Shown here: positions 2,851-21,749 of the stretch, one piece after another | How positions within the stretch are numbered: position 1 is the stretch's first letter | How the letters are laid out: the number at the start of each line of letters is the position of its first letter | Source of the DNA: Escherichia phage MirsaeidiM_Esher6 | Reading direction: 5' to 3' (one strand) | Length of the DNA stretch: 22,558 nt | Sequence record: PQ585404 | Made by a program: the position numbers and the translations under genes | Notes under the pieces: generated by a model | Told to the model about the DNA's origin: nothing | The model's input: only the letters and a program-made list of their open reading frames with translations | Databases searched by the model: none

Positions 2851-5800
2851 TTACTTCTGTTCAAGAGCAGAAAGTCTGGCTTCGATTCTTTCCAGTTTTC
2901 TTCTCTGATAAGCGGCTTCAGCAAAGAAAATTCCGTCAGGCCGAACACCCCACTCCTCACCCTCTTCGTGAATAACCACCTCGGTGTACACAGGTTCTTC
3001 CGTAGTAGTGACATTACCCTCCTCGTCAGTGTGTTCAATGATTTCATTGTGCGAAAATACCGTATCGGTCATCCGTGGATACTTGTCATAGCACAGAACA
3101 GCATAACGACAATTCGTACTGTTTTCATCCATCAGACCATGTGCAATGAATACATCACGAATTTGCTGAGCAATAACCCCGAAGTGAATACGAGCATCAT
3201 TGCCTTTCAGTTGAACAGCATCTAACCACTGGTACATGATGTAGTGAACGTCACCCCAGGCATCTAGGAAAGCATCATCAAAAACTACCGGCTCTGTTTT
3301 CCTCTCCCCGTTAGAAGTAACAATAGGGTTACTTCCTAGGTATGCAGTGGAGAAACGGTTGCTAGGCCCACCAAGCGCAGTGACGTTATCGTTATAAGGC
3401 TTAACATCAGCAGTCTGGAACAGGTGCTCAGCTCCGTTGTAAACTATCCGCCTTGAGTCGGTGTTATTTGCACCATAAAGCGTAATCTGTGCGCCAGAAG
3501 AAGAACTGGTACTGTCGCCTCCGCAAAATATGGTGCGCTGCCCTGCAGGGTTATCAGTCGGTATAGATTTCCCGATAAACCCATATTCACCTTCCATTAA
3601 AACTTCAGAGCGAATGTTACTACTGGTGCTGGCTCTAATGGTCACATGACCTAAACCCAAATCCCCTGTAAATTCCATTGGCGCAGGAACAGTGCGAATC
3701 CCATTCGTATCAAAAAACACGGGAACAGCTCTGTTAGGTACAGCACCATACCTGAAATCACGGGAAACATGATTGCTTGGGCCAATCTTCATTTTGTAGC
3801 AATACAAATCTGAGGGATGACCATCCGATTTGAATGGGTCCTTCGCTGAGTTATCTCCATATGTCCATGGGTTAAAATGGTCCTCTCCACCAAACATGTA
3901 GTAGATGTAATTATCCTTCACAACTACCGAACCAACACCTACACCTGAGTTAACTATTCCGCCCTGATAAATCTGGTCAGTGATGTTAACCAATTCAATA
4001 TCATCTGCATTCCAATTGTTTACATTCAAGCGTGCATAGAAGGTGCGAGGATAAGATGCCTTGTAACGATCATCTGGTGCACCTGCTTCCCATTCATTTT
4101 CTGCACGTTCTGAACCAAACATAATAAGGTCATCCCCTACTTTAGCAAAAGGTAATGTAGTATGATGAACATTATGTGGAAATCTCAGTGACTCCCAAGT
4201 CTGACCTATGTCTCTACTACGATGCAAAGAGCTACCTAGTCTATCCCCACGAGTACCACGAGTGATAAGATACAATACACCATCATAGTACTTGATGCAC
4301 GGTTCTGATGCATCTGGTTCATACTCAGCTGGTATCTGACGACGAACATAGTTAGCTGGATTGTCGAAAGCATTAGGGAAGTAGAAGAGTCCAACTTCGC
4401 GTGGGGCTACATCGCCTTGATGATAACCCATAACAAAGCCATTGTTATCAATAGTAGCAAAGCTATGCACCTCTGTTACACGAGGGATTAGACCGAGGTC
4501 TGTCTTACGCCATGGAGACTTATGGAAAGACGTACCCATGTGCCAATTCTTTCCAGCGTTATTCAAATCTGAAGTCTGCTGGTTGGGTGTAAGAACCGTG
4601 AAGTTGTCCTTATCTATTACGGTTGCAACAGTCATATCACCGGATACACCTGTTACCGCAGAATTAGAGAAGTTAACAAAATCACCCACGAATAGTCCGT
4701 GGTCTGGTACATGTATTGTTGCATATCGCTGATTTGCAGCTTTAGTGATACCACCAGTAAGATGCAGGCTACGAGACATGGGGCGATCCCACAATGCACA
4801 ATTGGTTAATTCGTTCTTGGCTAAAGTACGTGTTTCAATCATGGCAAACAGACGGTTGCGACATACACCCATGCTCATACAGTGATAGTTCACTGTAGGG
4901 TAATCTGGATGCAGATCAGTTAACCACTCTGGAGTAGACCATGTTTGACCATCATCACCAGACTTAACCCATGATACATGCAGACGACTAACACCATGAC
5001 GATCGCCACCCATGTAAGGTGCATATATCACATTATCATATACGAACGCTTTATCCTGAGGCCACGCATTGTAATAAGGGGTGTCCGTTATTTTGAATAA
5101 CTCCCCCTGAACAAATTCCTCAGAGGCATAATAAAGAGGTTGTCCGGGAATGCGCTCATAAAGGAAACGAGTGTTGATGAAGCGACTAATGTCAGGCAGG
5201 GATGTGACCTTATATGTCTTCCCATTGCCATTAATCTTTTGTCCAACCGGTATGTCGTTTAATGCGCTCGTTAACGCTGCTGTATCATCAGTGACACCAT
5301 CCCCTTTAGCACCCCAACCACGAACATCATTTTCATCAAGCCAGCGTGCTCTATGTAATTCAGGGTAGAGTATTGCCCCTTCCGGGTTTGAAATCTGACT
5401 TCTTAAAGCAGCATCACCAACACTAACCCACGCACCTAATCCAATCCCACCAGAAGTTTCAGGAGTTGAACCAGCAGGAACGTTCTTTGGAAGCGTACCA
5501 TCCCAGCGGTAATAATCACCATCCTCTTCCCATAGCAGGACCTCGCTCCATGTTGTAACGTTGTAGCCTTTCTCGAAGGAGCGACGGGTCATATAGCCAA
5601 TTAGACCAGCTTCCCTGATACTCTCAGCGATTCGGCGTGCTTCGTCCTCGCTATCCTTAGCGTTGCCAGCAGAGCTACCAGCAGCATCGGCATATTCCTT
5701 CGCTAAGTCAACCGTTTGGTCTCGACCTTCTTCTGCAATATGGATAGCCTGAAGCTCTGAATTGGTCAGGTCACTAGCTGTCAACACTGAGCCATTCCTG

Positions 5801-6045
5801 AAGTCTACCACTAAGTCAGTTCCAGTCTGACGGTGAATACGAACGATGTCGAAACCTGATTGGTCAACCAACATCTCAATCATCGTTGGATTAAGGAATC
5901 GGTAATCTCGACCAACTTCCAGTACACGGTTCAGGGTAGGGTTAGAGCTATTCACCAGCGTAACAACAACAAACGTTCTGGCTAGGTAATCGAACTCAAT
6001 CCTGTACTGAGTGTTCCCTGAAGGGAATTGTGTAATCGTGGACAT
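2851..6045 (-). CDS. gp17: Tail fiber / tailspike with endosialidase (endo-N-acetylneuraminidase) catalytic region and C-terminal intramolecular chaperone domain
   Basis: 1064 aa. The N-terminal ~150 aa (MSTITQFPSGNTQYRIEFDYLARTFVVVTLVNSSN...) is a T7 gp17-like tail-attachment domain. Length 1064 and Ser911/Lys916 (...VTS-NGERK..., by my count) match what I recall of K1F endoNF. ATG start with SD AGGAGG. Confidence 0.85.
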   Translation of the reverse strand: MSTITQFPSGNTQYRIEFDYLARTFVVVTLVNSSNPTLNRVLEVGRDYRFLNPTMIEMLVDQSGFDIVRIHRQTGTDLVVDFRNGSVLTASDLTNSELQAIHIAEEGRDQTVDLAKEYADAAGSSAGNAKDSEDEARRIAESIREAGLIGYMTRRSFEKGYNVTTWSEVLLWEEDGDYYRWDGTLPKNVPAGSTPETSGGIGLGAWVSVGDAALRSQISNPEGAILYPELHRARWLDENDVRGWGAKGDGVTDDTAALTSALNDIPVGQKINGNGKTYKVTSLPDISRFINTRFLYERIPGQPLYYASEEFVQGELFKITDTPYYNAWPQDKAFVYDNVIYAPYMGGDRHGVSRLHVSWVKSGDDGQTWSTPEWLTDLHPDYPTVNYHCMSMGVCRNRLFAMIETRTLAKNELTNCALWDRPMSRSLHLTGGITKAANQRYATIHVPDHGLFVGDFVNFSNSAVTGVSGDMTVATVIDKDNFTVLTPNQQTSDLNNAGKNWHMGTSFHKSPWRKTDLGLIPRVTEVHSFATIDNNGFVMGYHQGDVAPREVGLFYFPNAFDNPANYVRRQIPAEYEPDASEPCIKYYDGVLYLITRGTRGDRLGSSLHRSRDIGQTWESLRFPHNVHHTTLPFAKVGDDLIMFGSERAENEWEAGAPDDRYKASYPRTFYARLNVNNWNADDIELVNITDQIYQGGIVNSGVGVGSVVVKDNYIYYMFGGEDHFNPWTYGDNSAKDPFKSDGHPSDLYCYKMKIGPSNHVSRDFRYGAVPNRAVPVFFDTNGIRTVPAPMEFTGDLGLGHVTIRASTSSNIRSEVLMEGEYGFIGKSIPTDNPAGQRTIFCGGDSTSSSSGAQITLYGANNTDSRRIVYNGAEHLFQTADVKPYNDNVTALGGPSNRFSTAYLGSNPIVTSNGERKTEPVVFDDAFLDAWGDVHYIMYQWLDAVQLKGNDARIHFGVIAQQIRDVFIAHGLMDENSTNCRYAVLCYDKYPRMTDTVFSHNEIIEHTDEEGNVTTTEEPVYTEVVIHEEGEEWGVRPDGIFFAEAAYQRRKLERIEARLSALEQK

Positions 6046-6092: not shown

Positions 6093-6115
6093 GTTTCCTA
6101 TAGTGATAGTTTAGT
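6093..6115 (-). promoter_or_regulatory. Phage RNAP promoter upstream of gene 17 (phi17-like)
   Basis: Minus strand reads ACTAAACTATCACTATA|GGAAAC, one of five copies of the same 17-mer followed by G. Overlaps the gene 16 stop codon. Confidence 0.8.
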
Positions 6116-9100
6116 CCTTGATGTGGATGCCCTGCTCCTCAAACGTTCCAAGCAACAGCTTCTGGGTAATGGGGTCGTTCGGAACCAGTTCACGGAACGT
6201 GTTATACATCCCGGTCATGTAGTCTCGCTCGTTGACACGGGTATCAGCCTTGAGGTAGCCAGCCAAGTTGTAAGCAGAAACGCCAACGTTAGCAGCATAT
6301 CCGAAAGCTGGAACCTGCTCCAAGAAGTTACCAACAACATTCATCACAGGGTCACTTGTAGCCGCACCAAACGTGATGGCACGTTCAGGCTTCTCTGTAG
6401 GCGAACGAGGAAGGATAGACGAGCGGAGTAACTTAGTGTCCTCATACCCAGCGATGCCACCCAGAATGTTGGCGACCCCAAGAGGTCCACCCAAGTGGGA
6501 GCTACGGGATAGAGCCGCATAGCCAATCATCGTCGGGTTCAGGGCTTGCTTCAGGTACTCACGGTCACGACCGTCCTGCATAGCGTAAGCCTTGATGTGC
6601 GCCTGAGCCATGTAGTACATCCCAGCCAGACCCATAGAGATCACAGTGGACAGTGCAGCATCCATAGCTCGGTTGTTCTTGGTGGCGTTGTAGAAGGTAC
6701 GCATGGTTCGACCGTTGATAGACTTGATAACGTAGTTCTTAAACTGCAAGACAGTCTTCGCTATCGGACCATAAGCCTTGGCGTCCATGTTGCTCAGCTT
6801 GTGGGGACGGAGCAGGGTCTCATCAGCGATGGTGTCACCCATACGCCAGAGGTCCATAGCCCTTGGGTCCTGACTGAACGCCTTCTTATCCTTGATGGTG
6901 TACTTCCCGTCTGGACCACGCGTCACTGACTCACGGATGAGGGACTTAATGCCCTTCCACTGCTCGTCAGAGATACCAGCGGTCTTCAGCCAGCGGTCAT
7001 CGAACTTACGCTTACTACCAGTCAGGCTATGCTCCACGATGTCAGACAGGAAGCCTTGACGTCCAGCATCTAACAGGTAGTTGGTCGTACCGTTGAGGAC
7101 TTTAGTGAACGGAGAGCGTACTGCAAGTTCGCCAGTGTAATACTTGGCAGTCCCCAGAGCTGTAGCTGTACCACGACCGAGGTCACTGTAAGATCGCAGA
7201 CGGTCAATGACATCCTGTTTAGACGGACGGATTGAGTCATCCAGTTCCTTACCGAAGATAACATTGTGCAGGTCCTTAATCTCTGAGGCCCCAACCTTCT
7301 TGTTACGGAAGGCTAGGTCACGGAAAATTGGGACTCCATGCAGCATTGCACGAACGTTGCCACGAGCCAGCATACCACCAATCTCCGTTAAGTTCTGAAC
7401 ACCCATGTAGGCATTCTTAGCGAAGAACGATAGGTCTGTCATTGTGCGCATCACGGTAGCGAAGGCTGCATCATCAGCACCATCACGTCGAGCACGACCA
7501 GTTAGAATCTTCAAGGTGTCACGTAAGGTAGATACTTCACCTTTCAACTTACCGTCATCCCCAGCCTTGTTCATCATGGTCTCAACCAAGTCCTTCATGT
7601 CCTTCGTGGTTTTGCCTGTACCAGCCATGATAGCAATATCGCCATTAATTCGACGGTTGTAGGCCGGGACAATCTTGTCCATGTCCCACTCACGCAGGTT
7701 GTTGACACTGAAGGTCTGACCATTAGGTAGGACGATTGACATATCGCTATCGAACAGGTTACGAGCCTCAAGGAAGCTGTTGTTCTCCAGACCCACCAGA
7801 CCATTGATGTTCTCTTCCATTACGGATGAACGCTCGAACTGCTCGGTGTGAGAGATACCATAAGCCTTATCGTTGGCGTACTTATCGACCGCAGCCGCAA
7901 GTCCTTCTGGAGTCAACGTAGGATCAGCCTCTAAGAGTGCCTCGTCCACACGTTTCTTGACCTCAGGTCGAGACGCATAGCTGGTCAACCATGACTTCTT
8001 GATGGCCTCCTGTAGTGCCTCTGGACTCCCAAGCTCCTTGATGTATAGCTCCTTCATCTGGTTGCTATACACATGCGGGACGTAGGTTCCCTTGAAGCGG
8101 CTGCCCGGAAAGATAGACTGAGCGTCTGGCCGACCAAACATAGCTGGGTTCTCCATCATCTCACGCTTGGCGTCAAACTGGTTCTTCAGTAGGTCATAGA
8201 CTTTAAGTTCTCCCGGAGTAAGTTCAGCCTTCAGGTTTCCGCTGCCATCTTCGATAGCCATAGACACGCGCTGGTAGATGTCCTGACGGAATGCTCCAGA
8301 GTCTCGCCAGAATGCTGTCTGGAAGTACGGGTCCTTCAGTGCCTCAGTAACCGCATCATCGATGTCGTTGTAGAACCGATGGTCCACAGCACGCAGTCTC
8401 TCGAATACGTCTGACGCAGTGGTCCCGATTTTACCTGAGGCCCCTGACTGCATACCAGTCGGTGAACGCACTAAGTCAGCAGCTACTCCACGAATCTCAG
8501 GGTTCTCAGACCGAAGCAGCTTCAGGCCAATCTCGGTAAGTCCACCAAGGTTCACACCAGCAGCGGCACGTTCTGGCTCAATCACTTCGTCAAAGACCTT
8601 ACGTGTCTTAGGGTTCAGAGGGTTCTCACCAATCAGGATTGAACCATCTTCCAGTCGTACACTACCCTGCTCATTCGGAACGTCAGCGAACTTAACTCCT
8701 TGATGACTAAAGGTCTGCTCACCTTCCTGAATAGGGAGACGAGACAGGTCCTGACCATCAATGTTACGAGCGGTCTCACGAGCTTCCAGACGTGTAGCTG
8801 GGCCAGCGAACTCATTAGTGTTGCGACCTAAGGCTCTGCCTAACCCATCAGCGATAGCAGTCATACCACCACCGAAGAGAGCACCACCAAGGATAGCTTC
8901 AGCCACATGAGTATCGCCACCAGCCACTGAGGTACGGGCCATCTCGGACACACCAGCAAGTGCTCCAGATTGAGCAGCCACGGTGAACATCTTGTTGACC
9001 AGCTTCGCACCTTTGCCAACCTGTCCAGCGATAGGAACGTAGGTCAGCGGGTCTACACCAGCACCAATCACACCAGCTGCTAACTGAGCACCAGTCCCAG

Positions 9101-12306: not shown

Positions 12307-12873
12307 TTAGCTATGACCTGTAGGTGTGCCTTTAGCAGCACTAATCGGTGCAGCACCATCACCAGAGCTGGACGCTCCAGAGATTGACTTACCAGCAGCG
12401 TACCCCTGCATCCCGGCGCTTGCAACATTAAGTGCATGAGCCAGTGGGCTGGTCTTGATGATTTTACCTTGACCGTGGATAGCAGACTTGGTGTTCTCAA
12501 TGTTGGCGATACGGTTCCCGAAGATAGCCGCATAGTCACGGTTGTAGCTTTCGGTAATCCCTGCTCGCTCCTTGACTGTATCTCCTGCGACCTGACGTTC
12601 AATCCTGTCCATAGAGTTACCTTCCAGACCGGACTCAGCCACCGCAGCTCGGACCATACCCTGATTGCGGATACCGTTGAGCGTGGTCTCTGTCAGTTCA
12701 GCCATCTGCTGCTCCTTCAGGTCTCGCTCCTGCATCTTCAGGTTGGCATCAGAGTAATTCATTTGTTTAATCATCTCCTGAGCCTGACGGTTCTGAGCGT
12801 CAATTGCTGCACCTTCGGCCTTGGCTTGTTGAGACGCGGACATAGTGGCCCCTGCTACAGCCATAACGCCCAT
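12307..12873 (-). CDS. gp14: Internal virion protein B, T7 gp14-like
   Basis: 188 aa, Ala/Gln-rich; MSASQQAKAEGAAIDAQNRQAQEMIKQ parallels the T7 gp14 N-terminus. ATG at 12873 has no obvious SD, so the start is slightly uncertain. Confidence 0.78.
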   Translation of the reverse strand: MGVMAVAGATMSASQQAKAEGAAIDAQNRQAQEMIKQMNYSDANLKMQERDLKEQQMAELTETTLNGIRNQGMVRAAVAESGLEGNSMDRIERQVAGDTVKERAGITESYNRDYAAIFGNRIANIENTKSAIHGQGKIIKTSPLAHALNVASAGMQGYAAGKSISGASSSGDGAAPISAAKGTPTGHS

Positions 12874-12900
12874 GCCGATAGAAATTGGTTCGCAAATTTT

Positions 12901-12975
12901 CTAATCCCCCTTCCGGCTATCAGCCAGATACTTAGCAGCCTTCTCAATCTTGCAGACTGTGCAGACCTTCGTCAT
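12901..12975 (-). CDS. Small ORF (24 aa, CxxC) translationally coupled to gene 13
   Basis: Absent from the ORF track (below its size cutoff). ATG overlaps the gene 13 TGA as ATGA, with SD AAGGAGG 5 nt upstream. Translation MTKVCTVCKIEKAAKYLADSRKGD, stop TAG. Confidence 0.4.
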   Translation of the reverse strand: MTKVCTVCKIEKAAKYLADSRKGD

Positions 12976-13430
12976 ACGTCCTCCTTGGAGATTGTGAATA
13001 ATTGAAAACGCTCACCAGTGACAGGACTCTCGGTCCAATCATCATGGAATTTAGCGCCAAGCAACTTCAAGAATTTAATGTGAGACTTATTGTCTGACCA
13101 CACGTAGTTCCAGATGGTCCCGTATTGGTCTAACATTAAGTCCCTGTACTCAGAGATACGCTTTATGAACTCCCGCTTCTCTTTAGGTCTCAGCTTATAG
13201 ACAAGACCTGAAGTCAAGAACCATACGTTATCCCCTTGGTTTCCACCATATGCAAACACTTCGCCTACACCGTTCGTTAAAACCACAGATGACGGAGATA
13301 AATGCTTAAGCAGTCTTTCAGAGAGACCCACGGTTGACCCGTAGTTTGCTTTGCATTCATTAACATCATCTGCCGAAAGATGCCGCATAAAGTAGTGGAC
13401 ATCTGGTTCCGTAGCCTTGCGAATATACAT
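12972..13430 (-). CDS. gp13: Internal virion protein A, T7 gp13-like
   Basis: 152 aa directly downstream of a phage promoter, between genes 12 and 14 as in T7. ATG with SD AGGAG. Confidence 0.72.
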   Translation of the reverse strand: MYIRKATEPDVHYFMRHLSADDVNECKANYGSTVGLSERLLKHLSPSSVVLTNGVGEVFAYGGNQGDNVWFLTSGLVYKLRPKEKREFIKRISEYRDLMLDQYGTIWNYVWSDNKSHIKFLKLLGAKFHDDWTESPVTGERFQLFTISKEDV

Positions 13431-13459: not shown

Positions 13460-13482
13460 AGTCCCTATAGTGATAGTTAAGG
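13460..13482 (-). promoter_or_regulatory. Phage RNAP promoter upstream of gene 13 (phi13-like)
   Basis: Minus strand CCTTAACTATCACTATA|GGGACT. The initial transcribed sequence GGGACUAUAGUCCC is a perfect hairpin. Confidence 0.75.
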
Positions 13483-13506
13483 TAAATCTATAGGCCCTTC
13501 AATAAG

Positions 13507-16544: not shown

Positions 16545-16582
16545 GCAAAAAACCCCTCAAGCACCCGAAGGCACCCAAGGGG
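16545..16582 (-). terminator. T-phi-like transcription terminator after the capsid gene
   Basis: Minus-strand RNA CCCCUUGGGUGCC-UUCG-GGUGCUUGAGGGG followed by UUUUUU. The stem needs G-U pairs, so it forms only on the minus-sense transcript. Very similar to T7 T-phi (AACCCCTTGGGGCCTCTAAACGGGTCTTGAGGGGTTTTTTG). Confidence 0.85.
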
Positions 16583-17865: not shown

Positions 17866-17888
17866 TCTCCCTATAGTGATAGTTTAGT
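17866..17888 (-). promoter_or_regulatory. Phage RNAP promoter upstream of gene 10 (phi10-like)
   Basis: Minus strand ACTAAACTATCACTATA|GGGAGA, followed by a ~100 nt leader and SD AGGAG before the capsid ATG. Confidence 0.85.
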
Positions 17889-17889
17889 C

Positions 17890-18774
17890 CTACAGGCTTG
17901 AGGCAGCTACCTTAGCGCGAACTTCCATCGTGTACTTAGCGTCACGCAGGTATCGCGGGTCACTCATAGCCTTAACCATGTCAGCCTTGGAGCTGAATGC
18001 TTCGGTCTGAGGAGCCTTAGGTGCGACCACAGGTTTAGCCTGAGTGGTGATGGTACGCTGAGGTTTAACACCCACAGCTTTACCCAGAGTCTTGCCAGCC
18101 AGATTCAGCAGAGCCTTGGTAGTCGCAATGTCCTTACGAACGATAGCAGCTTCCAGTGCTTCACGAGTTGACGGGTCGTTGGACTCAAGATGTGACAGGA
18201 TGCGATTAAACTGTTCAGCACCACCAGCGTAGCGAACCACACCAGCAGCATACTGTTCAGCAAGAGCTTCCTGACCACGGACAAACGAATCTACGAAACG
18301 CTTGGTGTAACCTGCTTCCTGTAACTTAGCGTAGGATGCGTCAGACAGCTTACCGTCCTTGGCGTATTCAGCCTTGATAGCGGTAATTTCATCAGCAGTG
18401 ACCTTGCCAGCTTCTACAGCAGAAGACACCATGTCGTCGAATGCAGCTTCGTTTTCATCCAGAGCGGTGACACTTTCAGTCAGCTCTTTCGGTGCATCAC
18501 CTAGTTCGATGAACTCAGGTTGCTCACCATCGGTCTCAGACTCTTCGTCATCGGACTCGTTGTCTTCATCACCCTCAGTCTCTTCGACGTTCTCGTCTTC
18601 TTCGGTCGCCTCTTCGTTTTCGGCTTCCAGTTGCTTGAAGGTAATAGCGTCATCGCCATCACGAACAGCTACGTCCTGTTCAAGCATAGACTTCTGGTGT
18701 TCGTTCAGGTCCTCAACGGAACCAGTGATTGCATTAGAGCTAACGCCGAACTCGGCATAAACTGATTGAGACAT
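17890..18774 (-). CDS. gp9: Capsid assembly / scaffolding protein (T7 gp9-like)
   Basis: Acidic protein; MSQSVYAEFGV...VAVRDGDDAI... parallels the T7 gp9 N-terminus. The track ORF starts at an upstream GTG (18810); I place the start at ATG 18774 because it has SD AAGGAGA and matches the T7 N-terminus. Confidence 0.85.
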   Translation of the reverse strand: MSQSVYAEFGVSSNAITGSVEDLNEHQKSMLEQDVAVRDGDDAITFKQLEAENEEATEEDENVEETEGDEDNESDDEESETDGEQPEFIELGDAPKELTESVTALDENEAAFDDMVSSAVEAGKVTADEITAIKAEYAKDGKLSDASYAKLQEAGYTKRFVDSFVRGQEALAEQYAAGVVRYAGGAEQFNRILSHLESNDPSTREALEAAIVRKDIATTKALLNLAGKTLGKAVGVKPQRTITTQAKPVVAPKAPQTEAFSSKADMVKAMSDPRYLRDAKYTMEVRAKVAASSL

Positions 18775-18853: not shown

Positions 18854-18876
18854 TGTTCCTATAGTGATAGTTTAGG
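18854..18876 (-). promoter_or_regulatory. Phage RNAP promoter upstream of gene 9 (phi9-like)
   Basis: Minus strand CCTAAACTATCACTATA|GGAACA. Overlaps the gene 8 stop. Confidence 0.78.
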
Positions 18877-20440
18877 CTTGAGCCATGTCCTCACCAGCTC
18901 CCTGACCTACAGCAGCGCCCATGTTAGCACCAGCAGCACCAGCGCCTTGGACTACAGCCTGTTGAGACGACTGCTCAGCCATGCGCTGAATCTTCTCGTC
19001 TTGCGTCAGGAGTAGGCCAGCGGTGTCGATACCCAGAGCGTTCAGGAGTCGTAGCTTAAGGGTCGGCAAGTTGATGTCCGGGTCCTGAGATAGCGGCTGA
19101 AGACCAGTCATCATGTTAACCGCCTGAGTTAGCTTCTCCAAGTCCTGACCACGACCTAACGCTTCCAGACCAGTGGAGACCGTAGGCTCTACCGCTTCTT
19201 TCGGAAGGTCAGGAATCATGCCAGCAGACTGAAGTTGGTTCATCAGCACACGGACGATAGGTAACTGAAGCTCTTGGGATTGTACTGAGTACACGCCACC
19301 TAAGGTCGCCTCCAGTTCGCCAGCAACATAACGAATCTCTTCAGCAGTGACTCGCTCGGCATTACGCTGAACAGCACTATTAAGAAGGAAGGCCCAACCT
19401 AAACGTTGCTCGATAGCGTCAGCCACCGATTTAGCAATCGTAAAGTCCTGACCTTTCGTCAGTTGCAGGAAGTTGATGTCCTCAACGCGACCAGCCACGA
19501 ACTCACCTGTAGCCGCCTTATTCAGACGACGAGGTTGCGTGATACCGTTCGGGTTAACGAGGCCCACCACCTTGGAGGCTACCTTAGCCATTTTGGTGAT
19601 AGCTTCTGTAATCGTCTCCAGCGAGTTCAGGTCTCCCAGATACTCCTCGCAGTAAGAACGACCATAGTCTTCACCATCCAGTCGAACCATTCGTACCGGG
19701 ATGTATGGACATGCAGTCAGTGGGTAGGAACCATCGGTCCCTGATACCTCAATGCCTTCCACTTCTTCATAGCGCAAATACTCGTCGTCCTGACGGTAGA
19801 TGTGCGTATATACTTCCAGCTCTGTGTCAGGCTCATAGTCGTCTGCGTTGAGTTGTGACTTCACGTCTTCCGGTAGAGCACTAAACGCTACCTTGTCGAG
19901 AGTCACAATCTGTAAGATGTTACCGAAAGCATCACGTTGAACAACGTAGGACACTAAGCGGTACATTCGCATAGGACTGTAGGTTCCCTGTTCAGGCTCT
20001 GGAATGTAGAGAAGACAGTTACCGGAGACTATAAGCTGCTTAAGAGCCTCAAACAATGGCACACGGAAACTGTTTGTCTCCATGTAGGCCATCAACACAC
20101 GCTCGACCATAGCAAGCCCCTCGTCAACACGAGCAGCAGCCTCTGAGTCCTGACTCAAGGTCTTTGCCTCATATTCGGAGACTGTCAGTCGCATCCACGG
20201 TGACTGAGGGAATAATGCCAACATCAGCTTTGCAGCCAAGTTGTTCAAGCAGCGAGCACCCACAGCTTGCCACGGAGTGGTGTACTCAGTAGACGAGTTG
20301 TCGGACTCCTTAGGAAACAGTGACGGGATAGTGACAGCAGCACAGTTCTGAGCGCGTGTCTCATATGGCTGTCTACCGTTCTTCAGTCGGTCATAGACCG
20401 CTTTGGCTCCTTCAGCAGCGAACCCTTCACGTTCAGCCAT
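18872..20440 (-). CDS. gp8: Portal / head-to-tail connector protein (T7 gp8-like)
   Basis: 522 aa (T7 gp8 is 536 aa) at the syntenic position upstream of scaffold and capsid. ATG with SD AAGGAGGTGA. Confidence 0.88.
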   Translation of the reverse strand: MAEREGFAAEGAKAVYDRLKNGRQPYETRAQNCAAVTIPSLFPKESDNSSTEYTTPWQAVGARCLNNLAAKLMLALFPQSPWMRLTVSEYEAKTLSQDSEAAARVDEGLAMVERVLMAYMETNSFRVPLFEALKQLIVSGNCLLYIPEPEQGTYSPMRMYRLVSYVVQRDAFGNILQIVTLDKVAFSALPEDVKSQLNADDYEPDTELEVYTHIYRQDDEYLRYEEVEGIEVSGTDGSYPLTACPYIPVRMVRLDGEDYGRSYCEEYLGDLNSLETITEAITKMAKVASKVVGLVNPNGITQPRRLNKAATGEFVAGRVEDINFLQLTKGQDFTIAKSVADAIEQRLGWAFLLNSAVQRNAERVTAEEIRYVAGELEATLGGVYSVQSQELQLPIVRVLMNQLQSAGMIPDLPKEAVEPTVSTGLEALGRGQDLEKLTQAVNMMTGLQPLSQDPDINLPTLKLRLLNALGIDTAGLLLTQDEKIQRMAEQSSQQAVVQGAGAAGANMGAAVGQGAGEDMAQA

Positions 20441-21674: not shown

Positions 21675-21697
21675 AGTCCCTATAGTGATAGTTTAGT
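21675..21697 (-). promoter_or_regulatory. Phage RNAP promoter upstream of gene 6.5 (phi6.5-like)
   Basis: Minus strand ACTAAACTATCACTATA|GGGACT. Confidence 0.82.
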
Positions 21698-21749
21698 GTT
21701 TCACCTATGGATGACTGTTGGATTGATAGGATATGACTATCGGCTAGAC

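Follow-up and report, generated by a model that had tools for sequence, protein, structure and literature searches.

Homing endonuclease genes are said to pass through a cycle of invasion, decay, and loss, as reportedly set out by Goddard and Burt in 1999. Proteins of the Endo VII-motif group are characterized by a catalytic D-H-x-H, a conserved Arg, and an Asn after the second CX2C, represented in T4 endonuclease VII by D40, H41, H43, R54, and N62 (PMC6083498). The resolvase of T7-group podoviruses is T7 endonuclease I, and the proteins with a C-terminal Endo VII motif found in endonuclease I-encoding podoviruses fall into an endonuclease (non-resolvase) clade (PMC6083498). In the homing endonuclease gene (HEG) of phage ICP1, gp174, an in-frame, repeat-mediated deletion of 228 bp has been reported (PMC10055350). 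For initiation in overlapping or adjacent genes, reporters of the thrS-infC junction demonstrated that reinitiation and de novo initiation make about equal contributions (PMC3592434).

Here, we compared these systems with the slot between genes 13 and 14 of Escherichia phage MirsaeidiM_Esher6 (PQ585404), in a stretch of 22,558 nucleotides hereafter called the window. The slot contains a 24-codon open reading frame (ORF), which is best explained as a decayed copy of gene 13.5, now a stub that possibly relays ribosomes to gene 14. We put the probability of this explanation as a whole at roughly 0.85.

The 24-codon ORF and its parent gene

All genes of the window lie on the minus strand and belong to the late region of a T7-group phage, with genes for the portal, capsid, nozzle, gp15, gp16, endosialidase tailspike, holin, small terminase, and spanin. 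The 1064-aa tailspike (2851-6045, minus strand) carries the complete endosialidase set (PF12217, PF12219, PF12195, and PF12218) together with an S74 chaperone domain, and this domain set indicates that the phage is K1-capsule-specific (K1F-like). A repeat family of five copies (6097-6118, 13464-13485, 17870-17891, 18858-18879, and 21679-21700) was found upstream of genes 17, 13, 10, 9, and the 6.5/7 region; its sequence is CCTATAGTGATAGTTTAG on the plus strand and ...CTAAACTATCACTATAGG... / ...TAAACTATCACTATAGG... on the minus strand. This repeat family evidently represents the predicted promoters for the phage RNA polymerase in this Kayfunavirus. The capsid gene and gene 11 are separated by 289 nt, and this gap contains, at 16554-16571 (minus strand), a GC hairpin with a T run after it (CCTTCGGGTGCTTGAGGG GTTTTTTGCT); the element resembles a terminator and occupies the place of the T-phi terminator of T7.

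The first-pass annotation had recognized a T7-like phage with genes 13 and 14 as neighbors of the ORF, and Pfam matches of both neighbors bore this out (PF11090, E value, 2e-42; PF24072, E value, 8e-42). The features around the start of the ORF are as follows:

13460..13485, minus strand: phage-RNA-polymerase promoter-like repeat upstream of gene 13, a member of the five-copy family
12972..13430, minus strand: gene 13 (gp13, internal virion/assembly protein, 152 aa; PF11090 Phage_T7_Gp13, E value, 2.3e-42), whose TGA stop overlaps the stub ATG
12980..12986, minus strand: Shine-Dalgarno sequence (SD) AAGGAGG, 4 nt (ACGT) 5' of the ATG and orthologous to the ancestral gene 14 SD
12901..12975, minus strand: 24-codon ORF, in-frame deletion stub of gene 13.5 (Endo VII-motif, homing-endonuclease-like; 69/75 nt versus the Penshu1 gene)
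12940..12945, minus strand: GAGAAG, surviving copy of a 6-bp repeat where the two ends were joined; any cut position from 30 to 36 gives the same fit

The existence of the ORF was confirmed. It runs on the minus strand from the ATG at 12975 to the TAG ending at 12901, comprises 24 codons plus the stop, and encodes MTKVCTVCKIEKAAKYLADSRKGD. Its minus-strand reading is ATG ACG AAG GTC TGC ACA GTC TGC AAG ATT GAG AAG GCT GCT AAG TAT CTG GCT GAT AGC CGG AAG GGG GAT TAG. The SD and the ATGA overlap (gtATGAcg), in which the start codon is shared with the TGA stop of gene 13, had both been pointed out earlier and were confirmed in the sequence, on the minus strand; the SD-ATG spacing, given then as 5 nt, is actually 4 nt (ACGT). 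The duplex of this SD with the 16S tail was calculated at -11.4 kcal/mol, which is within the range of the real gene starts of the window and roughly in the top 1% of window positions. As many as 21 ORFs of at least 20 aa were present in the surrounding 1.2 kb, and the length of the ORF is therefore uninformative by itself. What stands above chance is the strong SD, the ATGA overlap, and the identity of 69/75 nt to the two ends of a known gene of relatives.

This known gene occupies the same slot in other phages and is named gene 13.5 in EcoDS1 and phiYeO3-12 and 'recombination endonuclease VII' in Penshu1. A megablast search of the region demonstrated that several relatives match over approximately 813 bp versus 501 bp, with an 'endonuclease VII' gene between genes 13 and 14, and that most others match over approximately 423 bp. 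In the alignment with the Penshu1 gene, 69 of the 75 nt of the ORF were identical (92%), covering nt 1-36 and nt 349-387. The ORF thus consists of Penshu1 codons 1-12 joined to codons 117-128, with codons 13-116 absent, and the product of the Penshu1 gene is a protein of 128 aa (MTKVCTVCKIEK-[104 aa]-AAEYLAGSRKGD). The segment missing relative to Penshu1 is exactly 312 bp, in frame, and represented by a single gap. The Penshu1 gene contains the direct repeat GAGAAG twice (nt 31 and nt 343), and the window has a single copy of it. Homology to the ends of the Penshu1/ST21 gene was seen for each half of the ORF, and the tail and the downstream sequence are shared. The ORF lies in the slot between genes 13 and 14, begins with the SD-ATG signal found where gene 13 ends, and is collinear with a full-length gene at both ends; it belongs to the gene 13.5 locus as a degenerate allele. 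On this sequence comparison, two observations that would speak otherwise, namely halves that are non-collinear with gene 13.5 or an ORF conserved without a full-length relative, are already contradicted.

The full-length proteins of the slot matched PF02945 Endonuclease_7 (Penshu1, E value, 9.4e-18; 101136BS1, E value, 8.6e-28) and also the PHROG family 'endonuclease VII'. Their motif map comprises CxxC at positions 5, 31, 66, and 94, D81-H82-C-H84, R91, and C94xxC97-N98. The deletion removed three of the four CxxC motifs and the whole DHCH...R...CxxCN catalytic core, leaving C5xxC8 alone in the stub. C5xxC8 is the first knuckle, that is, one half, of the N-terminal Cys4 ribbon of the parent (C5xxC8 + C31xxC34). 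The earlier remark that a lone CxxC is not a metal site was correct, as the partner pair has been deleted. The 24-aa product had no Pfam match at E ≤ 0.01 and was not placed in PF02945. A search of the stub for the DHxH, R, and CxxCN segment of the DHHRN catalytic motif found none, and the zinc site made of CX2-4C and CX2C flanking DHxH is likewise missing from the stub, with C5xxC8 belonging to the separate N-terminal ribbon. We infer that the stub cannot be an enzyme and would be a 24-aa peptide without activity of its own. Judged by its sequence, it shows none of the functional features of the Endo VII family, and its proper classification is that of a pseudogene remnant and neither an endonuclease nor a small-protein gene.

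A second Endo VII-family homologue was noted outside the window, in the related phage MirsaeidiM_Esher7 (PQ593108, 37497-37931), where it is annotated as hypothetical and shares 45.6% identity with the EcoDS1-type protein. At least one member of the Endo VII family therefore appears to remain intact in this lineage.

Gene 13.5 alleles in related phages

The locus was surveyed with a 161-nt probe, which matched 175 phage records. Among these, the deletion was common only to the window phage and MirsaeidiM_Esher7 (99.8% identity, genus Kayfunavirus). Comparison across T7-like phages, proposed in the first-pass annotation as a check on conservation of the ORF and its frame, therefore gave a clear negative answer: no 24-codon gene is conserved at this position, and only Esher7 shares the ORF. 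The slot was filled in approximately 25 records by an endonuclease VII-family gene of 128-136 aa. About a dozen records had the full Penshu1/CY1-type gene, eight had the EcoDS1 type, and Ro45lw had a third, very different allele; alleles or stubs of the ATT type, described below, were present in approximately 16 phages. The site was empty in approximately 150 records, including K1F and T7, and among the matches listed only the gene 13 end matched, as in K1F and vB_EcoP_F. At least three diverged alleles occur at one insertion point, with gene bodies sharing 56-61% nucleotide identity between types. The last 42 nt of gene 13.5 were 39/42 identical between the Ro45lw and Penshu1 types, though the bodies share 56%. 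Such near-identical tails fit a tail that would serve gene 14; an alternative is allele replacement by recombination within the tail.

Independent decay products at the locus number four, the stub of the window and the following:

KM02 stub: 204-bp in-frame deletion between AAGCTG repeats, 60 aa
Monomax stub: 321-bp in-frame deletion of a Ro45lw-type allele, 29 aa
ZG49 stub: 5'-truncated, with the gene 13 3' end and the 5' half of gene 13.5 deleted

The two other in-frame stubs, of KM02 and Monomax, differ from that of the window in length and sequence. In ZG49 (NC_047777, 480-830), gene 13 is fused after ...DQYGTIWN to the middle of gene 13.5 with a TGA at the junction, leaving gp13 without approximately 40 C-terminal residues. 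ZG49 is an isolated, RefSeq-listed virus, and either the C-terminus of gp13 is dispensable or the record is in error. An IMG/VR search returned ZG49 and Ro45lw again and no others. Of two metagenome scans, the first yielded none and the second one further full-length Ro45lw-type allele. A match in a genome collection was rejected as chance similarity in a Dehalococcoidales MAG.

The gene is thus sporadically present at one precise site with intact, degenerate, and empty alleles, as is expected of a free-standing homing endonuclease gene. Such genes are recognized by this combination of patchy distribution, one exact site, multiple alleles, and recurrent decay. From this distribution and the description of the F-CphI family (PMC6083498), gene 13.5 appears to behave like a free-standing homing endonuclease gene. 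One idea is that the stub could still interrupt the target site of the endonuclease and so, while sparing the phage the burden of the full gene, shield it from cleavage by intact gene 13.5 products when other phages infect the same cell.

Proposed initiation of gene 14 and probable translation of the stub

In K1F and vB_EcoP_F, the empty site reads identically, AAGGAGGACGTATG, and the ATG there starts gene 14 (MCEPVSIG...), within ...AAGGAGGACGT ATG TGY GAR CC.... T7 has the same design, in which AAGGAGG...ATG TGT TGG (MCW...) starts gene 14. These alignments showed that AAGGAGG-ACGT-ATG at the gene 13 end represents the ancestral initiation site of gene 14 in T7, K1F, and most Kayfunaviruses. 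They also showed gene 13.5 as an insertion exactly between codons 1 and 2 of gene 14, capturing the SD and the ATG, so that gene 13.5 uses gene 14's own SD and ATG. Within the last codons of every gene 13.5 allele lies a substitute SD, and each allele also provides a new first codon for gene 14:

phiYeO3-12: AGAGGAG...ATG
KLB12: AGGAGGGA...ATG
EcoDS1: GGAGG-6 nt-ATG
101136BS1, PDP21P1, and VIPECLMC06: GGAGG-6 nt-GTG
Penshu1-, CY1-, and Ro45lw-type alleles and all stubs: GGAAGG(G/A)GGA TTAG RAA ATT

In the window, the corresponding stretch is TAG AAA ATT TGC GAA CCA ATT TCT ATC GGC ATG..., which gives the stop, a Lys codon, and (I)CEPISIGMGVMAVAG in frame. In the allele group of the last line (ATT type), gene 14 probably starts at ATT (12897-12895 in the window), with the following predicted features:

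12905..12914, minus strand: second SD (GGAAGGGGGA) in the last codons of the stub (SRKGD), 8 nt 5' of ATT
12895..12897, minus strand: ATT, proposed gene 14 start, 3 nt after the stub TAG and aligned with the ATG/GTG starts of the other alleles
12307..12897, minus strand: gene 14 as read from the proposed ATT, encoding internal virion protein B (gp14; PF24072 T7_gp14, E value, 7.5e-42; N-terminal comparison)

The second SD scored -10.8 kcal/mol, in the top 0.9% of window positions, and was kept in all 14 ATT-type sequences inspected, with a perfect AAGGAGG in Ro45lw. The ATT aligned with an ATG start in K1F, vB_EcoP_F, and EcoDS1 and with GTG in 101136BS1, PDP21P1, and VIPECLMC06, and this ATG or GTG position is the start accepted by the annotators of K1F, EcoDS1, and VIPECLMC06. 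Codons 2-8 of gene 14 read CEP[IV]SIG in 14/14 ATT-type sequences, with mostly synonymous variation (GAA/GAG, TCT/TCA/AGC, ATC/ATT/ATA, and GGC/GGT/GGG). This variation would be supporting but not decisive for an ATT start, because homing co-converts the flanks and import from ATG-type phages by recombination is possible. At the sequence level, gene 14 thus has what an AUU-initiated gene is expected to have, namely an aligned AUU, an SD at working distance, and conserved coding downstream. The first-pass annotation had described a 98-nt gap between genes 13 and 14 as otherwise unexplained. The figure holds if gene 14 starts at the ATG at 12873, and the gap can now be broken down into 72 of the 75 nt of the stub (its ATG being in overlap with gene 13), a spacer of 3 nt, and a further 24 nt, which most likely belong to gene 14 as its real 5' end.

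Every annotated ATT-type record (10/10) calls gene 14 from codon 9 or 12, which is 8 or 11 codons short relative to K1F and EcoDS1. Taken at face value, these calls would favor an inert scar, that is, a stub that is not usefully translated beside a gene 14 expressed independently from the ATG at 12873 or 12864. AUU is moreover a poor start, 6-8 times weaker than AUG in reporters (PMC3592434), ZG49 survives without upstream translation reaching the tail, and there is no statistical signal of frame conservation. Neither ATG, however, is conserved or preceded by an SD: codon 9 (12873; +0.4 kcal/mol) is Leu in seven ATT-type sequences (ST21, CY1, KM02, U8, PSK1, HC13, and L024), and codon 12 (12864; -3.4 kcal/mol) is Leu in Monomax, as against -10.8 kcal/mol for ATT at a position aligned with accepted starts in EcoDS1, K1F, and VIPECLMC06. 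Furthermore, the SD and ATG of the stub are those of the working gene 14 site, and an absence of translation would require a special reason. We therefore consider an inert scar unlikely, and the annotated starts appear to be mis-called systematically, by gene callers for which ATT is not a permitted start codon.

A decayed gene 13.5 that is still read by ribosomes agrees better with these signals. The stub is probably still translated, through the intact strong SD and the ATG directly following gene 13, as its initiation region is nucleotide-identical to the working gene 14 start. It may also pass ribosomes to gene 14: those finishing at the TAG, 3 nt before ATT, would reinitiate gene 14 there beside de novo initiation directed by the SD. 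Features suited to such a relay are present as sequence features only: the SD of -11.4 kcal/mol, the ATGA overlap, and a TAG 3 nt 5' of ATT. What matters would then be the DNA of the stub, whose 5' end holds the gene 13 stop and whose 3' end holds the gene 14 SD, so that neither end could be lost without cost. No copy of the phage promoter repeat and no convincing sigma-70 or terminator site was found in the gap between genes 13 and 14, and gene 13, the stub, and gene 14 are therefore expected on one transcript. The fuller proposal, that gp14 is AUU-initiated in at least 14 Kayfunavirus genomes and that the stub is kept as a relay from the original initiation site of gene 14, is tentative, and we rate it at somewhat below an even chance.

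No evidence of selection on a relay or on the frame of the stub was found, and the deletion state occurs in one lineage only (the window phage and Esher7). All three internal deletions (312, 204, and 321 bp) are in frame, but this pattern was rejected as evidence of frame selection, since 53-100% of direct-repeat pairs of at least 6 bp inside these genes, being repeats of codon pairs, are in phase anyway. After an in-frame deletion, the stop still lies 3 nt ahead of ATT, and out-of-frame deletions would place it 34-239 nt upstream or 43 nt inside gene 14, which makes a cost of out-of-frame stubs plausible. In ZG49, the stop lies 150 nt upstream of ATT in a viable isolate, and tight coupling is thus evidently not essential. 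As a separate observation, gene 13.5 (or the stub) of the ATT type and gene 14 share one reading frame that is split by TAG AAA only (12901-12903 / 12895-12897), and if the amber stop were read through, as may occur in laboratory hosts of the supE type, gp14 would acquire an N-terminal extension.

RNA structure did not distinguish the region, as the minimum free energy fold of 12850-13000 was no better than shuffles (z = -0.13), and Rfam gave no match anywhere in the window. A 6-bp hairpin, CTGGCT-NNN-AGCCGG (12915-12929, minus strand), lies directly 5' of the second SD, and its stem pairs in 9/9 sequences. The stem showed two one-sided changes (U-G/U-A), no covariation, and no excess over the shuffle control, and hypervariability within the tail is confined to a single codon, the triplet that forms the loop (GAT, GGT, ACA, ACC, AGA, and ATA). 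A 189-aa antisense ORF (12436-13005, plus strand) opposite gene 14 and the stub had no PHROG match and is probably a chance ORF.

It could also be supposed that the ORF is a genuine, selected micro-protein gene, whose 24-aa CxxC product acts, for example, as a zinc-binding virion or regulatory peptide or as a decoy against the endonuclease of co-infecting phages. The strong SD, the ATG, the ATGA coupling, and the intact frame would agree with this, as would the nucleotide differences from Penshu1 in the 5' 12 codons, of which all four are synonymous. Both differences in the 3' 12 codons, however, are non-synonymous (E to K and G to D). The ORF moreover occurs only in the window phage and its 99.8% identical twin, approximately 150 relatives have no ORF in the slot among the matches listed, and the stubs of 60 and 29 aa have different sequences, so that no common peptide is kept. 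With one of the two N-terminal ribbon knuckles left and no family match, we regard a selected peptide as very improbable. An assembly or sequencing artefact, with 312 bp of a full-length gene 13.5 lost in assembly, can be practically dismissed: a short repeat does flank the deletion and only two near-identical records have it, but a 6-bp repeat is far too short for assembly collapse, the deletion is clean and in frame, and analogous deletions exist in unrelated records (204 bp between AAGCTG repeats in KM02; 321 bp in Monomax).

Significance and comparison with known systems

The stub of gene 13.5 is an ordinary finding, a pseudogene remnant of a known mobile endonuclease gene, and neither annotation nor further pursuit as a CxxC peptide gene is warranted. 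The locus nevertheless presents a clean, datable example of how homing endonuclease genes cycle through decay in T7-group phages: alleles that are intact, decayed three times over, or empty occur at a nucleotide-precise site. It also shows how a mobile gene can sit in the initiation region of an essential gene without killing the phage, by taking the SD and ATG and supplying substitutes in its tail. No description of the gene 13.5/gene 14 start-codon arrangement (ATG to GTG or ATT), of an AUU start of gene 14, or of gene 13.5 stubs was found in the searched literature. The only elements that appear mildly new are the start-codon replacement accompanying gene 13.5 and the predicted AUU start of gene 14.

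If true, the ATT start would correct the annotated N-terminus of gp14 in more than a dozen therapeutic-candidate phage genomes and would add a natural AUU-initiated phage structural gene; under the AUU/relay reading, all database records of these phages would have the gene 14 start wrong, by 8 or 11 codons. The protein concerned, gp14, is an essential ejectosome protein, and a true relay would represent an infC-like arrangement created by a selfish element. For engineering of K1F-type phages around genes 13-14, the 3' 40 nt of the stub should be treated as part of the gene 14 ribosome-binding site.

Compared with gene 13.5 of Kayfunavirus and Teetrevirus phages (EcoDS1, phiYeO3-12, and Penshu1), the stub has the same slot, start, stop, and 3' tail but lacks the second half of the N-terminal zinc ribbon and the entire Endo VII catalytic domain. 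Full-length gene 13.5 products resemble the F-CphI/'DHHRN' homing endonucleases (PMC6083498) in their C-terminal motif (CX2C, DHxH, R, CX2C-N) and their occurrence in T7-group podoviruses, whereas the motif is missing from the stub altogether; cleavage and homing are putative activities of gp13.5. The parent gene also has the PF02945 domain in common with T4 endonuclease VII (gp49), a Holliday-junction resolvase. In the T4 enzyme, however, the motif is N-terminal and serves a core recombination function, whereas in gene 13.5 it is C-terminal and the gene is sporadic. Gene 13.5 is dispensable, given that most relatives do not have it.

The junction of the stub with gene 14 has the same geometry as that of E. 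coli thrS-infC, with UAG AAA AUU here versus UAA GGU AUU there and an SD inside the upstream ORF. In contrast to thrS-infC, the AUU start of gene 14 is predicted from sequence, nothing suggests autoregulation of the IF3 type, and the arrangement arose through insertion of a mobile gene. The stub and ICP1 gp174 have in common that part of a phage HEG was lost in frame between short repeats, but the deletion here takes out the whole catalytic domain, whereas in ICP1 it reshaped DNA-binding repeats. Finally, as in the decay cycle of homing endonucleases, intact, degenerate, and empty alleles coexist at the gene 13.5 site.
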